DNA of 14,433 nucleotides, from the IMG/VR virus record IMGVR_UViG_2609459801_000010. One strand, 5' to 3'. Origin of the DNA: a virus. Lineage: Duplodnaviria > Heunggongvirae > Uroviricota > Caudoviricetes. Position numbers and translations under genes: made by a program. The notes below the pieces were generated by a model. It made no database searches. It was not told where the DNA came from and saw nothing but the letters and a program-made list of their open reading frames with translations. This document shows, in pieces, positions 3,245 through 13,515 of this stretch (position 1 is its first letter; every line of letters begins with the position of its first letter).

Positions 3245-3523
3245 TTACCTCCAGATCCGTTGCTGGAATGTGCGGGACGGACGCGCTGGCCGTTCTGAGT
3301 AAGGGAGCCTGACGGAGATTATCCAGTGACGGTAGTCGAGGCTAAGGGCTTTTTTAACCTCGCATCCGCGCCCGCGGTAACACTGAATGAGCCATTCAGC
3401 CTGTTCTTCGGTGCAGGGGTCGTGCTGATACCAGTCAGATTTGAATGCATGAGAACGCCGCCCGTGCCTGCTGGCAGGGGCGGCAGAGTTATCCGAATTG
3501 TAAAATTTGGTATCGTGCGCCAT
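3245..3523 (-). CDS. Hypothetical phage protein (92 aa)
   Basis: ATG at 3523-3521; stop TAA overlaps the GTG start of the downstream gene, suggesting coupling. No recognisable motif; weak SD. Confidence 0.45.
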   Translation of the reverse strand: MAHDTKFYNSDNSAAPASRHGRRSHAFKSDWYQHDPCTEEQAEWLIQCYRGRGCEVKKALSLDYRHWIISVRLPYSERPARPSRTFQQRIWR

Positions 3524-3790
3524 CTGTTTTCTCTGCTGGCGCAGCAGGTGCCAGTTGTTCAGGCTGACGTATGAAGTATAAATAAACTGGCTCCAGTGTA
3601 AAGCCCCACCTTAATGGAATAAAAACCAAACAACAGATTGCTGGGATAAAAATACAACGCTTATTATTAAAAGCGGTTAGATAAATTAAATTTTAATGTT
3701 ATGCAAATCTGCCAGATTAGCATAATATTTCATTTGAAAACCGCTGAAATAACAATCTTATCGGGATTAATCATATTAAGGTGAGTAAAT

Positions 3791-3877
3791 ATGGAAAACA
3801 ACAAATCTGCACATTACGCTCCTTTTTTATCTGTAATACTTTTTGTATTTTGTTGTGTATGGGCGGTATTTTTATAA
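3791..3877 (+). CDS. Candidate small hydrophobic peptide (28 aa), possible membrane peptide or type I toxin-like ORF
   Basis: ATG at 3791 preceded by AAGGTGAG at good spacing; product MENNKSAHYAPFLSVILFVFCCVWAVFL has a polar N-terminus then one hydrophobic helix; a terminator hairpin follows 20 nt downstream. Below the 60-aa track threshold. Confidence 0.25.
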   Translation: MENNKSAHYAPFLSVILFVFCCVWAVFL

Positions 3878-3892
3878 AACACACCCACAAAT

Positions 3893-3927
3893 AAATCAAA
3901 CCCGCTACAGCGGGTTTGATTTATATA
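3893..3927. terminator. Bidirectional intrinsic terminator
   Basis: Perfect inverted repeat AAATCAAACCCGC-taca-GCGGGTTTGATTT; the GC stem CCCGC/GCGGG is followed by a U-rich run in both orientations. Lies just after the peptidase stop (3932) and after the small plus-strand ORF. Confidence 0.6.
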
Positions 3928-3931
3928 GTTG

Positions 3932-6196
3932 TTATACGGAAACTGGCACACGAGCAGGCAATGGATAGTGAGCCCAGTTATTAGCATTTAAAGCTCTTAC
4001 GCCATCAGCATAAACTTGTGTGTTTCCATCTAATGATTTTAAAGTTACTACAATAGTTACAGGTAAAGGCTCCATTAAGGCCGGTTCATTCGCTCTCAAC
4101 GTTGTTTTAGCTTGAAGAGCCCAGTTACCCGAAGTAATTCCTTTATTAAATGCCTTGCGATGAATTTTTACTGGTGACCACTTTCCACCATGCTCAATTT
4201 GAGCTCTCTCATATCCAGATTGACCGTTTTCTCCTTCCATAGGTACTTTTCCTTTTATAGTATTATTCTCAATTAAGCCAAAACTTAGCTCTACGTTCGC
4301 GCGAACATATTCACTGCCGGCATTAGGGTTCAGTGGTGGTGCATATGCAGCAGTAATTACAATCTCACCTTTAAATTTTCCATTTTGAATAAGTGCCGAT
4401 GGTATGGGATAGTTTTCCTTTCTCCACCTCACCCCAGGAACCAAGAATGTTTGGAAAATCAGAGTAAACCTATCATCACTATCATATAAGGTCTCAATAA
4501 CCTCATTAGGAATTCCCGCTCCCAAATAGCGTCTTTCACTTGGCGAGTAATCAGGAGAAGATAATTGAGCGGAATGAATTAATAATGCTTTAATCAATGA
4601 TGGTGAAACATTAAAGTCTGAATTAGTGGCTATTCTCTGCCATGTATGCGCAGCTAAACTTGCCACAATTGGAGCAGCAAAACTAGTACCAAAATTAGAG
4701 CAAAGCCTATTATCTGGCCCTACGACCTTTAAACTGCTTGCTCCTACATTCCAAGGTCTATGAACCCCACCGCCAGCATGGATTATATCTGGCTTTGGAG
4801 TAAATACAGGCCCAGGGCCACGACGAGTATATGGTGTCGGTGTTCCAATTTCACTTAAAGCATCATTAGCTTCCATATGAGAAACTGAACCAACTGTTAG
4901 TGCTCGGACTGACTCTCCAGGAGAGGAAATTAAATCAGCACCTCCAAGCGGATCAGGATTTGGCCATGTACGTATAGGTTCATCTACATAATTACCTGCA
5001 GCAACTACAAACAAAATACCAAATTTATCGCTGAGCCGATCTAACTCCATCGCAAAATCACTAAACATCTGCTCATTACATGGTCCGCCTCCCAAAGATA
5101 AATTCCAGACTTTTATATCTGGTCTTTTATTTACAGCATCTGCTAGCCTCAGAATTAAATCTGATATATAAGATCCATTTTCATCTAAAGCACAAACATC
5201 ATGGATTTTAGATTTTGTATCAGGAATCCATGGATGATTGTCATTTAAAAAATGAGCGCCTGATATCAATGAAGACACCATAGTCCCATGTTCATAACTC
5301 GTATCAGGAGGAATTACGTATGTTTCCCTACTCACTACCCAAGGAGTAATTGTTGCCGCGATGGGGCTTACCCCAGTGTCAAATACAGCAACAATGGGTA
5401 ATTCTTCTGATGGTACGGGAAAGCTATTTGTTTCAATGCCAACAGAATCACTTACACTAACCGGGAATGCTGAATATTTTGGTTCTGGAATTAACGTTCT
5501 TATACCCGGGTAATCAATGAGAATGTCTAATATATATCTATCATTTGGGGATAAATCCATTATCCTTAATAAGGGAAGACCACATTTTGGTCTAATCTCA
5601 TCATATTTAACTCCGTGTTGTTCTAATATAGAAATAACGTTTTCATAGTTGTTGTAAGTTGCATCTTCACCTGTGTACTCAAATAGTCGTACAAGGATGT
5701 TTGATGATTCAAACAAACCATCAGTGCCTCCTGGAACCTTCCTATTCTCATCCCAAGGTTCAATGCGCTCAATCGCGCTTAGGTTAGCCAAAATCGCTTT
5801 AATATTCCGATGTAAAATGACTGACTCTAATACGTCAAAACAGCCGGCATGAGCAGCAACCAACATTTCATCTATTTTGGCATGACCGGCATTTTGCAAT
5901 CCAGCCTCTTGAGCAATTTTGTTCGGCCTATGCGTTTTGGCTATTCCCTGGTCTCTTAATTTGAAAACCAAAGTACCCAAGCTTCCAGGGTACTCTGAAA
6001 GTTTGGATTCTAAATAATGTTTACTGGTTGTTAAATTTCTTACTAGCCCTTGTCTATATTCGGCTGTTACATCAACCAATACCTTTGCCCCACCGCCAGC
6101 GTTTACTATTGCACCCAAGTCACTACTGGAAAAAGGGATTCTTAACATTGGGTTTGTAACTTTTGCGTTACTAAACTGTGTACCCCTTCTGCTCAT
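3932..6196 (-). CDS. Subtilisin-like serine peptidase (peptidase S8 family), 754 aa, no signal peptide; IetS-like
   Basis: Catalytic triad in canonical subtilase order: Asp in VAVFDTGVS, His in YEHGTMVSS, oxyanion Asn in VVAAGNY, Ser in NFGTSFAAPIVAS. Polar N-terminus with no hydrophobic signal sequence. Strong SD (AAGGAG/AGGAG) before the ATG at 6196. About 270 aa N-terminal and 200 aa C-terminal to the catalytic core have no motif I recognise. Confidence 0.85.
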   Translation of the reverse strand: MSRRGTQFSNAKVTNPMLRIPFSSSDLGAIVNAGGGAKVLVDVTAEYRQGLVRNLTTSKHYLESKLSEYPGSLGTLVFKLRDQGIAKTHRPNKIAQEAGLQNAGHAKIDEMLVAAHAGCFDVLESVILHRNIKAILANLSAIERIEPWDENRKVPGGTDGLFESSNILVRLFEYTGEDATYNNYENVISILEQHGVKYDEIRPKCGLPLLRIMDLSPNDRYILDILIDYPGIRTLIPEPKYSAFPVSVSDSVGIETNSFPVPSEELPIVAVFDTGVSPIAATITPWVVSRETYVIPPDTSYEHGTMVSSLISGAHFLNDNHPWIPDTKSKIHDVCALDENGSYISDLILRLADAVNKRPDIKVWNLSLGGGPCNEQMFSDFAMELDRLSDKFGILFVVAAGNYVDEPIRTWPNPDPLGGADLISSPGESVRALTVGSVSHMEANDALSEIGTPTPYTRRGPGPVFTPKPDIIHAGGGVHRPWNVGASSLKVVGPDNRLCSNFGTSFAAPIVASLAAHTWQRIATNSDFNVSPSLIKALLIHSAQLSSPDYSPSERRYLGAGIPNEVIETLYDSDDRFTLIFQTFLVPGVRWRKENYPIPSALIQNGKFKGEIVITAAYAPPLNPNAGSEYVRANVELSFGLIENNTIKGKVPMEGENGQSGYERAQIEHGGKWSPVKIHRKAFNKGITSGNWALQAKTTLRANEPALMEPLPVTIVVTLKSLDGNTQVYADGVRALNANNWAHYPLPARVPVSV

Positions 6197-7325
6197 ATGC
6201 TCCTGACTCCTTCAGAATGTTTGAAATTACTCTTGATGTAAGTTTGTACAAATTAGCAAGAACTCTGATAGAAAATAATTTTTTATCTTTAGAACGTAAC
6301 CAACGAATTTCATCTTCGTAAGTGCTTAAATTTACACCTTCCATAAGCGATTGCGCAAGATACAAACGCCTATACAATTTATGGTGATTTATCACACTTG
6401 CACCTTCAATAACTGCATCCCTACGTGCATCCAAGCTCACCTGTTCAATTATTGCTCCGGATAATCCCTCCGATTTTCTTGATAAATCACTTAAATCTAG
6501 ATCGCTACATATCATATTCTTTAAACGATTTTTCCAAATTAACTCTCTCTGATGTATGTCAGGCAGAGGCATTGGAATTCTGAAGCTAAATCGCCTCCAG
6601 ATTGCAGGATCCAGAAGTTGCTCATGGTTAGTTGAGGCAATAATTACCGTATCCTCTGATGCCGCATCCATATTCTGCAATAGTGAAATGACAACTCGCT
6701 GAAGCTCACCTATATCTCTCTCATTACCTCTTGCTCCAGCTAAAGCATCAAATTCGTCTAAAAAAAGCACTGATGGCCTCTGCATTACATAATCGAAAAC
6801 CTGTCTAAGATTTTTGCTGGTTTGTCCCAATAAACTACTAATCAAAGTATCGCAACGCACTGTAAGAAGTGGAAAATCTAAGCGGGTAGCGATGTACTTA
6901 GATAACATAGTCTTACCTGTTCCTGGCTTTCCATACACGAGCATACGACTCGGCAATGCTGCATCAGCTTTAACAAACTCATCATAACGTTGAACATTAG
7001 TGATAAACTCTTCAACACGGGTACTGATTGCTGCAGGCAGAAAAATCTCTGAACTGTCTAATTTAGGATAACTGACATCAACAGTGTTGAGTCGACTATC
7101 AATATCTACCGGTAATGAGCCCAGAGATATCCCACCTCCAGCCCTTTGAGCTCCTGCCAACGCCTGGGGAGCTCTAAGCAACCTTTCTCTTATCATTCTG
7201 GCTTGCTTGACCTCCCCTTTTTGTTCGAGCTTATCTGCCAGCAACCCAGCATAATTACTAGCCATCGAAGCATTTGCCTTTGTTGCACCTTCAATGATTT
7301 TTAACACTTCTGATAAATAATCCAT
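6171..7325 (-). CDS. AAA+ ATPase (classical AAA clade), 384 aa; IetA-like
   Basis: Walker A LVYGKPGTGKTML, Walker B SVLFLDEFDAL, second region of homology IIASTNHEQLLDPAIWRRFSF. GGGAG SD before the ATG at 7325. 3' end overlaps the peptidase start by 26 nt, implying co-translation. Confidence 0.85.
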   Translation of the reverse strand: MDYLSEVLKIIEGATKANASMASNYAGLLADKLEQKGEVKQARMIRERLLRAPQALAGAQRAGGGISLGSLPVDIDSRLNTVDVSYPKLDSSEIFLPAAISTRVEEFITNVQRYDEFVKADAALPSRMLVYGKPGTGKTMLSKYIATRLDFPLLTVRCDTLISSLLGQTSKNLRQVFDYVMQRPSVLFLDEFDALAGARGNERDIGELQRVVISLLQNMDAASEDTVIIASTNHEQLLDPAIWRRFSFRIPMPLPDIHQRELIWKNRLKNMICSDLDLSDLSRKSEGLSGAIIEQVSLDARRDAVIEGASVINHHKLYRRLYLAQSLMEGVNLSTYEDEIRWLRSKDKKLFSIRVLANLYKLTSRVISNILKESGAYEQKGYTV

Positions 7326-7518
7326 TCAACACTCCCACAACAAAAAGCCACAGCAATCAAAAAATGAGCACACAGAATCAAAATACTCTCTAATCGTAAC
7401 GCATTTTGAGATTTTTGATACGTTTTTTTGGGATTATGTAACGCCAAATGGTCATTTTGTGTCAGAAAAATAAATCTTAGTACCGAGAATATGTAGCTTC
7501 CATCCTTCATCGTTCTAT

Positions 7519-11278: not shown

Positions 11279-11698
11279 ATGGACAAATATGAATTTAGAC
11301 GACAGCAACTCATCAAAATTCGTGATGAGAAATGCGATGGTAAAGCGGTTAACGTGGCCAGAAAGATCGGGCGCGAGCCTTCTTATGTATCAAGAATGTT
11401 GTACCCAGAGGGGAAAAAGGGAAAAAAACGGATCGCTGATGATATGGTGGAGATTATCGAAGAGTCCTTTGGGTTACCCCGGGGATGGATGGATGGTATC
11501 GTTTCATCATCAACGAACACAGCCTCCAGTTATGAAACAAGGGTTCTAACGCCACGACAACGTATTTTTTTAGATCTCTTAGACGAACTGCCAGAAAGTG
11601 AAGCGGATAAATTATTAAAAACTCTTGAAGAGAAAAAACAGTATTACAATATGATCTACGAAGAAATCCGTAAAAAGAAAGCACAAAACGCATCATAG
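11279..11698 (+). CDS. Prophage repressor-like HTH protein (139 aa), RacR/DicA-position
   Basis: Divergent from the cro-like gene; HTH-like AVNVARKIGREPSYVSRML; no SD upstream and a -10 hexamer just before the ATG suggests a leaderless mRNA, as for lambda cI from PRM. Confidence 0.65.
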   Translation: MDKYEFRRQQLIKIRDEKCDGKAVNVARKIGREPSYVSRMLYPEGKKGKKRIADDMVEIIEESFGLPRGWMDGIVSSSTNTASSYETRVLTPRQRIFLDLLDELPESEADKLLKTLEEKKQYYNMIYEEIRKKKAQNAS

Positions 11699-11739: not shown

Positions 11740-11778
11740 TTACCCATGGGTATTTACTTTTTAAATACCTATGGGTAT
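11740..11778. promoter_or_regulatory. OL-like operator pair downstream of the repressor gene
   Basis: Perfect palindrome TACCCATGGGTA (11741-11752) and near-palindrome ATACCTATGGGTAT (11765-11778), 25 bp apart; same TACCCAnnGGTA core as the OR-like copies; positioned to control plus-strand transcription of the ydfA-DicF-dicB operon. Confidence 0.45.
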
Positions 11779-13098: not shown

Positions 13099-13151
13099 TT
13101 TTCTGGTGACGTTTGGCGGTATCAGTTTTACTCCGTGACTGCTCTGCCGCC
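13099..13151 (+). ncRNA. dicF: DicF small regulatory RNA (ftsZ-targeting antisense sRNA)
   Basis: TTTCTGGTGACGTTTGGCGGTATCAGTTTTACTCCGTGACTGCTCTGCCGCCC matches the DicF sequence as I recall it; a T-run follows after the GGCGG...CCGCC stem; lies just upstream of dicB as in the Qin dic operon. Ends are approximate because DicF is processed. Confidence 0.75.
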
Positions 13152-13326
13152 CTTTTTAAAGTGAATTTTGTGATGTGGTGAATGCGGCTGAGCGCACGCG
13201 GAACAGTTAAAACCAAAAACAGTGTTATGGGTGGATTCTCTGTATCCGGCGTTAATTGTTAACTGGTTAACGTCACCTGGAGGCACCAGGCACCGCATCA
13301 CAAAATTCATTGTTGAGGACGCGATA

Positions 13327-13515
13327 ATGGAAACGTTATTACCAAACGTTAATACGTCTGAAGGTTGTTTTGAAATTGGTGTCACTATCAGTAACCCAGT
13401 ATTTACTGAAGATGCCATTAACAAGAGAAAACACGAACGGGAGCTATTAAATAAAATATGCATTCTTTCAATGCTGGCCCGTTTACGTCCGATACAAAAA
13501 GGATGCTGGCAATGA
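13327..13515 (+). CDS. dicB: Cell division inhibitor DicB (62 aa)
   Basis: Product METLLPNVNTSEGCFEIGVTISNPVFTEDAINKRKHERELLNKICILSMLARLRPIQKGCWQ closely resembles E. coli DicB; GAGGA SD 8 nt upstream; stop overlaps the next start (ATGA). Confidence 0.85.
   Translation: METLLPNVNTSEGCFEIGVTISNPVFTEDAINKRKHERELLNKICILSMLARLRPIQKGCWQ

Follow-up and report, generated by a model that had tools for sequence, protein, structure and literature searches.

The 14,433-nucleotide stretch of DNA analyzed in the present work (IMG/VR record IMGVR_UViG_2609459801_000010, referred to below as the window) matches a prophage of Escherichia coli AR_0069 at 100% identity, and is a Qin/Rac-like lambdoid prophage with ydaS/T/U/V-like early genes and a DUF977 gene. 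The subject of the analysis is a 28-codon open reading frame (ORF), designated ORF28, which lies in a 408-bp gap between the genes for IetA and IetS (IteA and IteS in RefSeq) on one side and, on the other, a 92-residue gene followed by DUF968, RusA and the Q antiterminator (986-1807). All of these genes are on the minus strand, as are all of the long ORFs and annotated genes nearby, and ORF28 is read in the opposite direction within DNA whose guanine-cytosine (GC) content is 0.295-0.30 across positions 3600-3899, compared to approximately 0.55 in the nin-side genes on the left; an earlier note on this DNA had described both the strand and the AT-rich surroundings correctly. The interval that the note singled out (3791-3927) comprises ORF28 and the hairpin that follows it; the functional unit begins much further to the left, near position 3541.

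The start codon, the ribosome-binding site at canonical spacing and the encoded peptide are read exactly as the earlier note gave them (Table 1). The peptide consists of a polar head (residues 1-11) followed by a hydrophobic C-terminal helix that occupies the 17-residue tail (residues 12-28), with mean Kyte-Doolittle hydropathies of -0.65 to -1.44 for the head and, in all of the clades described below, +2.6 to +2.9 for the tail. When the window is considered as a single sequence, ORF28 is not beyond chance, because 14 ORFs of 20 or more codons are present in the gap and T-rich DNA encodes hydrophobic residues anyway. What sets ORF28 apart from the other ORFs in the gap is its conservation. A 27-codon ORF immediately upstream (3701-3784, plus strand), which starts from an ATG that is conserved in the AT-rich block and whose stop codon overlaps the Shine-Dalgarno (SD) sequence of ORF28, was considered as a partner in mok-like translational coupling and rejected: it lacks an SD sequence of its own, it has a different frame and a different length in each clade, and it is probably not a gene.

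Copies of ORF28 were collected by two retrieval procedures. The first was peptide-based and covered viral contigs and E. coli loci, and ORF28 is intact in all of the 93 loci that it produced (93/93). The second, chosen as a safeguard against retrieval bias, used a DNA pattern in a conserved block about 130 nt upstream and left the ORF itself unconstrained, and ORF28 is intact in 114/114 of the usable loci obtained in this way. The copies that can be read number 203, and all of them (203/203) have an identical start, stop and 28-codon length, without insertions or deletions (indels), frameshifts or interrupting stops; conservation in related prophages, which the earlier note had proposed as a check, is found in all of the copies read. 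The copies represent 15 nucleotide haplotypes in three clades (the window type, hok-major and clade 2, of which clade 2 is the most divergent). No antisense or alternative ORF overlapping ORF28 has a constant start or length across the clades.

Table 1. Positions of ORF28 and of the features around it, numbered from the first letter of the window
Feature	Position	Strand	Details
AT-rich conserved module, ~340 bp	3541..3880		alignment of representatives; common to three clades
Best promoter-like site of the module	3575..3602	-	TTTACA-16-TATACT; hexamers invariant in all three clades, spacer varies
Alternative weak candidate promoter	3638-3667	+	TTGCTG-18-TATTAT (16/18 spacing); position weight matrix (PWM) scan; alternative predicted start near 3674; poor in clade 2
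Most conserved block of the module	3655..3705		AT-rich; 90% vs clade 2, 98% vs hok-major; exceeds ORF28
Imperfect inverted repeat	3695..3729		AATGTTATGC...GCATAATATT; conserved; overlaps the weak plus-strand promoter candidate
Weak candidate ORF28 promoter	3701..3728	+	ATGCAA-16-TAATAT (TAAYAT across clades); PWM scan; predicted start near 3735
Promoter-like site	3770..3797	-	TTTCCA-16-TATGAT; overlaps ORF28 start codon and SD sequence
SD-like sequence	3778..3785	+	AAGGTGAG; 5-nt gap, then ORF28 ATG
ORF28	3791..3877	+	28 codons; ATG 3791-3793, TAA 3875-3877; product MENNKSAHYAPFLSVILFVFCCVWAVFL
Perfect hairpin	3891..3924	both	arms 3891-3906 and 3909-3924, 16 nt each, 100% complementary
IetS (RefSeq IteS)	3932-6196	-	754 residues; PADLOC E 3e-300
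IetA (RefSeq IteA)	6171-7325	-	PADLOC E 9e-143

The pattern of synonymous and non-synonymous change, the second check that the earlier note had named, carries the signature of purifying selection and bears out its description of a gene for a small peptide with a polar head and a single hydrophobic helix. Variable sites at codon positions 1, 2 and 3 number 5, 9 and 13, the ratio of non-synonymous to synonymous differences (pN/pS) against the window is 0.08-0.36, and the few amino acid replacements are conservative (A/V, I/V, V/L, F/L and C/F). A minimum-event count yields 13 synonymous and 18 non-synonymous changes, for which the binomial P is 0.004 if 20% of neutral changes are assumed to be synonymous and 0.03 if 25% are. 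The comparison between the window and clade 2 separates the ORF from its surroundings: ORF28 is 80% identical and gapless, while the two spacers of the surrounding module are 53-56% identical, with indels, and because the spacers have diverged to this extent the pS of 0.41-0.48 is at the neutral level, with a pN (0.12-0.15) that is well below it. Neutral evolution was also simulated by applying the same number of random substitutions, and the joint probability of an intact ORF, no more than the observed number of amino acid changes and retained hydrophobicity was 0.002-0.005 for clade 2 and 0.001-0.002 for hok-major. Residues M1-N4, A7, H8, P11, L13, S14, I16-F18, C21, W24, A25, F27 and L28 are invariant, and F12 is changed in only one of the 203 copies. 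To judge from these substitution patterns, ORF28 is most likely a real small-protein gene, and it is probably translated.

ORF28 belongs to the AT-rich module of Table 1. With the 281 bp from 3600 to 3880 as the query, the module was located at 1255 places in the complete E. coli genomes, 1184 of which (22% of 5426) carry it. None of the 60 records listed has an annotated feature beneath the match. Among 185,579 species representatives the module gave only two matches, in E. ruysiae and S. flexneri; a search of 50,697 phage records returned four matches, all of them from E. coli, and no distant homologues, and the two matches in a plasmid collection are both chromosome-sized E. coli records. 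The ORF28 family is confined to Escherichia and Shigella prophages.

The left edge of the module is a mosaic joint, where the homology between the Qin prophage of E. coli K-12 and the window stops (position 3540). At the right edge the homology with clade 2 stops at the stop codon of ORF28, while in hok-type loci it continues to 3905-3916 and ends within the hairpin. Some of the properties of a moron (a unit of promoter, ORF and terminator inserted between backbone genes) are seen in the module, namely presence/absence polymorphism between otherwise homologous phages, sharp boundaries and a deviant base composition (GC 0.30 vs 0.55). K-12 MG1655 lacks the module, and in its Qin prophage the same slot, with hokD on one side and the hyp92/DUF968 (ydfU) part of the nin region on the other, is occupied by rem (6603-7119 in locus L012), which encodes an 83-residue, soluble-looking minus-strand protein that is unrelated in sequence to ORF28. 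Since K-12 does not carry ORF28, small-protein surveys and ribosome profiling (Ribo-seq) resources based on K-12 could not have revealed it.

A census of neighbours covered 107 distinct ORF28 contexts. The convergent neighbour is a hok-family toxin in 82 of them, IetS in nine and DUF1971 alone in six, with no recognized neighbour in the remaining ten, and insertion sequence (IS) elements are also found beside ORF28 in some contexts. On the nin side the neighbour belongs to one of two backbones, the 92-residue/DUF968 type or the DUF1367/DUF1364/DUF1133 type. The module is a part of the phage backbone and not of IetAS. In Qin/Rac-like lambdoid prophages of Escherichia and Shigella it lies at the downstream edge of a hotspot for cargo (defence and toxin-antitoxin genes), which is flanked by the replication genes and by the nin/Q genes; the position “next to the cassette” on which the earlier note remarked is incidental.

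Some further observations concern the cargo. The interval from the DUF977 gene to the ORF28 module (3932-7518 in the window, and loci L004-L011) is a hotspot whose occupants vary from prophage to prophage: IetAS, hokD, genes for an ATP-dependent nuclease, a zeta-toxin family protein, DUF1971, a KilA-N protein or a nucleoid-associated protein, or IS421, IS1 and IS3 elements. In the window, the iteA and iteS frames overlap by 26 nt (6171-6196). Clade-2 loci contain a second small hydrophobic ORF of 43-48 residues (MKHIIDMLIRGED...; L003 4632-4763 and L094 3326-3472, both on the minus strand), which is convergent with ORF28, lies 240-310 bp downstream of it and is annotated as hypothetical only.

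Searches for relatives of the peptide placed it in no described family. Pfam and NCBIfam, searched at E values up to 10, returned only irrelevant sub-threshold matches to Sec20 and Lp6.6, and none of the known toxin families that they contain (Hok/Gef, Ldr, TisB, Ibs, ShoB and others) gave a profile match. PHROGs gave only marginal matches to hydrophobic segments (an Rz-like spanin at E 0.009 for one variant), with none for the window peptide, and no PADLOC model matched. An exact look-up of seven variants of the peptide in a collection of 15 billion proteins found none of them, which, together with the lack of RefSeq annotation in the records listed, agrees with the earlier suggestion that this is a gene missed by length cut-offs. 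A literature search on the IetAS names brought up nothing relevant, and the prophage small RNA (sRNA) svsR (PMC12803456), which had looked promising, was rejected because it maps to another locus, the 3' end of cI.

Termination and translation signals differ between the clades. The hairpin that follows ORF28 in the window has U-rich tails on both strands, is positioned 8 nt beyond the stop codon (3932) of the convergent iteS and is also scored as a plus-strand terminator, so that it is predicted to be a bidirectional intrinsic terminator common to ORF28 and iteS. Its hok-type homologue is scored as a terminator on the minus strand only, and no scored terminator follows ORF28 in clade 2; the claim that ORF28 has its own terminator in a perfect bidirectional hairpin therefore holds for the window variant but not for the other two clades. 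An AAGGTG SD sequence is kept in the window-type and clade-2 variants. The weak candidate promoter at 3701-3728 sits behind an AT-rich, UP-like block (3655-3705), whose cross-clade conservation was seen in loci that were found independently of it, and which is possibly the UP-element and -35 region of an ORF28 promoter, or a regulator site.

ORF28 exists as a conserved frame with a selection signature and a hydrophobic architecture, and it is independent of the IetAS cassette. The interpretation that is favoured, at slightly better than even confidence, is that it is a genuine translated small gene which encodes a membrane-anchored peptide and forms part of a moron-like backbone unit. In the 28-residue product a short polar head (MENNxxAH..P) would lie in the cytoplasm and the C-terminal part would be a transmembrane anchor. 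The gene sits at the downstream edge of the hotspot, in the discrete AT-rich unit of about 340 bp, which is moron-like. The peptide would be made in the lysogen, because ORF28 is transcribed against the early rightward operon, and after induction the convergent early transcription would shut it off. It may then act at the inner membrane on a function of the host or of an incoming phage, as a small membrane modulator or exclusion-type factor. The invariance of the head (M1-N4, A7, H8, P11) and of L13, S14, C21 and W24, with the near-invariance of F12, suggests a specific interaction rather than non-specific membrane damage, and a modulator or an exclusion-type peptide is the activity favoured on this basis.

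Several considerations weigh against this interpretation. The family has a narrow taxonomic range, its 15 haplotypes and roughly 31 substitution events make for a small effective sample, and the discrimination between frames is weak, since the synonymous fraction is 0.39 in the ORF28 frame and reaches 0.35 in another. The upstream non-coding block is more conserved than ORF28, and part of the constraint on the module must therefore be of a kind other than protein-coding. The strong ribosome-binding site described in the earlier note is present in the window, but the commonest variant, hok-major, has a weak SD sequence (AAAGTGAG or AAAGCGAG). No plus-strand sigma-70 promoter for ORF28 passes a consensus scan in any clade, and the plus-strand candidates found in PWM scans are weak ones that do not meet the consensus criteria. 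A literature search by peptide strings returned no paper containing the peptide, and the proposed membrane function is drawn from composition and orientation alone.

An alternative, which is considered unlikely, is a new type I toxin-antitoxin pair in which the ORF28 peptide would be a toxin that damages the inner membrane and is controlled by a minus-strand antitoxin RNA. The size and architecture of the peptide are typical of such toxins, as the earlier note had observed, and the slot usually also houses hok, which is a bona fide type I toxin; the absence of a match to any known toxin family argues in the opposite direction, as does the invariant polar head (MENN..AH), which suggests a specific interaction and not generic membrane damage. 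The RNA would be launched from the promoter-like site at 3797..3770, in the direction antisense to the 5' leader of ORF28. A site with consensus character in the -10 hexamer is found at homologous positions in the window (TATGAT) and in the hok-type locus (TTTCCA-16-CATAAT), so that the search for an antisense promoter which the earlier note had proposed gave a promoter-like site in these two types; the clade-2 homologue, however, has AATAAT with suboptimal spacing and falls below the threshold, and promoter-like sites in the region are no more numerous than in shuffled sequences. In the corresponding model, which is improbable, an RNA of about 110 nt extending from this site to about 3650 would pair with the leader and block or destabilize the mRNA, but the predicted start (near 3763) would leave both the SD sequence and the AUG uncovered.

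Folding of the two RNAs bears on the same question. The candidate minus-strand RNA (3764-3645) folds somewhat better than shuffled sequences (z -2.2), and its stem 3672-3678/3739-3745 is paired in 96% of cases on the minus strand vs 85% on the plus strand, with clade-fixed changes that are wobble-compatible only in minus-strand RNA; once rare variants are included, however, the changes counted as events are split evenly, four compatible with the minus strand only and four with the plus strand only. The hairpin at 3658-3675 was rejected as a terminator for this RNA, because it has a stem of only 5 bp, competes with the stem just described and shows ambiguous covariation. The putative ORF28 mRNA has a fold z of -3.85, which comes mainly from the terminator. 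Its SD sequence pairs with codons 10-12 in the window, whereas in the hok-type mRNA it is the AUG that pairs, with an upstream CCAUAU; the two folds differ and the consensus fold is weak, so that no conserved structure hiding the SD sequence or AUG, of the kind expected from the type I toxin reading, was found. Short repeats that might have masked the SD sequence or, as 9-nt repeats, allowed pairing in trans are not conserved; among them, the anti-SD repeat CACCTTAAT (3607-3615) and the direct repeat CAAATCTGC (3704/3802) are absent as conserved features from the other clades, occur at chance frequency and were rejected, and no Rfam family matches 3500-3950 at E values up to 1. On these results an antisense regulator of ORF28 is no more than a possibility.

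A second alternative, to which a similarly low probability is assigned, is that ORF28 is untranslated and that the module is kept for reasons of DNA or RNA function, the open frame being a by-product of T-rich sequence. The function might possibly be that of a promoter-operator region for the nin/Q genes beyond the strong terminator, or of a homology arm for the exchange of cargo. The stronger promoter signals of the module are on the minus strand, and the best of them, the site at 3602..3575, points into the 92-residue/DUF968/RusA/Q genes from a position just downstream of the strong terminator; as this type of phage has no obvious N gene, the site may serve the nin/Q side as an internal promoter. 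Regardless of the gene that follows, the first ~30 nt after its predicted start (3541-3568) are also highly conserved. Two non-coding blocks, 3541-3605 and 3655-3705, exceed ORF28 in conservation, and the conserved inverted repeat at 3695-3729 resembles an operator, or a hairpin that could form in RNA from either strand. The outer arms of this repeat are invariant except for one T/C difference, and its centre varies with the clade yet is self-complementary both in the window type (AATCT/AGATT) and in clade 2 (AAAAG/CTTTT). Most of the 19 variants have the hairpin on either strand, although in several of them it is weak or partial. The lack of a plus-strand promoter passing the scan, the weak frame discrimination and the frequency with which ORFs of this size arise here by chance are also as this alternative would have it. 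It does not, however, account for the invariance of the frame, ATG, TAA and 28-codon length over three clades whose spacers have accumulated indels and are little more than half identical, for synonymous sites that diverge at about the neutral rate when non-synonymous sites do not, for joint neutral probabilities of 0.001-0.005 per lineage, for a clade-2 mosaic boundary that coincides exactly with the stop codon, as a gene boundary would, or for the SD-like element at canonical spacing.

A combined proposal, which is distinctly doubtful, is that the whole 340-bp unit is a new type I toxin-antitoxin-like “lysogeny lock” composed of the membrane peptide and a structured minus-strand RNA around the conserved palindrome at 3695-3729. 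The unit would border the defence hotspot and be convergent with hok. Since the entire ORF28 mRNA is antisense to early rightward transcription, expression of the unit would be tied to the phage switch. Finally, the proposal that ORF28 assists or regulates the adjacent IetAS (IteAS) cassette as one of its components, prompted by its contact with iteS and their common terminator in the window, is contradicted by the co-occurrence data (IetS adjacent in just 9/107 contexts), by the absence of a PADLOC match for the peptide when its neighbours match IetS and IetA, and by the homology of the window hairpin to the hok terminator of hok-type loci, and can be set aside as extremely improbable.

Elsewhere in the window, a full-length DicF sRNA is located at 13101-13152 on the plus strand (76.7 bits, above the gathering score), directly followed by a sub-threshold STnc100-like match at 13150-13359 on the same strand (38.7 bits vs a gathering score of 47). 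In the immunity region, just past a 139-residue gene (11279-11698), there is a near-perfect palindrome with 16-bp arms (TACCCATAGGTATTTA...TAAATACCCATGGGTA, 11741-11777), which is probably a terminator or operator; a match of this palindrome to a microRNA family is spurious.

If ORF28 is translated, it represents a widespread small-protein family, present in 22% of complete E. coli genomes, and it illustrates the small-gene content that is still hidden in the intergenic DNA of prophages. For a membrane peptide expressed by the lysogen from this position, superinfection exclusion, modulation of membrane proteins and toxin activity would all be plausible roles. The value of ORF28 lies in its prevalence, in its absence from all of the annotation that was checked and in its use for the defence hotspot, since the module can serve as an anchor for mining a site at which IetAS, hok, zeta toxin, nucleases and further cargo are exchanged.

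Apart from rem, the known systems with which ORF28 can be compared fall into three groups. The type I toxins of E. coli considered here are Hok/Gef, Ldr, TisB, Ibs, ShoB, DinQ and ZorO. ORF28 resembles them in having fewer than 60 residues and one hydrophobic helix, in standing free in AT-rich intergenic DNA where gene callers have missed it, in the promoter-like site on the opposite strand at its 5' end and in its usual position beside hok. It differs in that its peptide has neither a sequence match to these families nor a charged C-terminal tail, and its mRNA has no conserved translation-blocking fold.

The second group consists of the exclusion factors. HK97 gp15 is a small inner-membrane exclusion protein encoded by a prophage moron. 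DicB, a small Qin prophage protein, is described in PMC6832061 as blocking phage entry via inner-membrane proteins. Like ORF28, these are small prophage genes, AT-rich relative to their neighbours, flanked by mosaic joints and oriented against the lytic operons, an orientation from which expression in the lysogen is expected, and DicB in particular comes from the same type of prophage, with DicF present in the window. They differ from ORF28 in that there is no homology between them, ORF28 is much shorter at 28 residues and its promoter is not evident.

The third group consists of small inner-membrane modulators of E. coli and Salmonella such as MgtS, AcrZ, KdpF, PmrR and MgtR, which have 26-50 residues and a single transmembrane helix. 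These are products of chromosomal genes with known partners, and specific conserved residues in them bind a larger membrane protein. ORF28 differs from them in being phage-borne and in lacking a conserved neighbouring partner gene, and it resembles them in its short length, its single hydrophobic helix and its many invariant residues. ORF28, which matches none of the named families tested, is most similar in kind to the known classes of small prophage membrane peptides.

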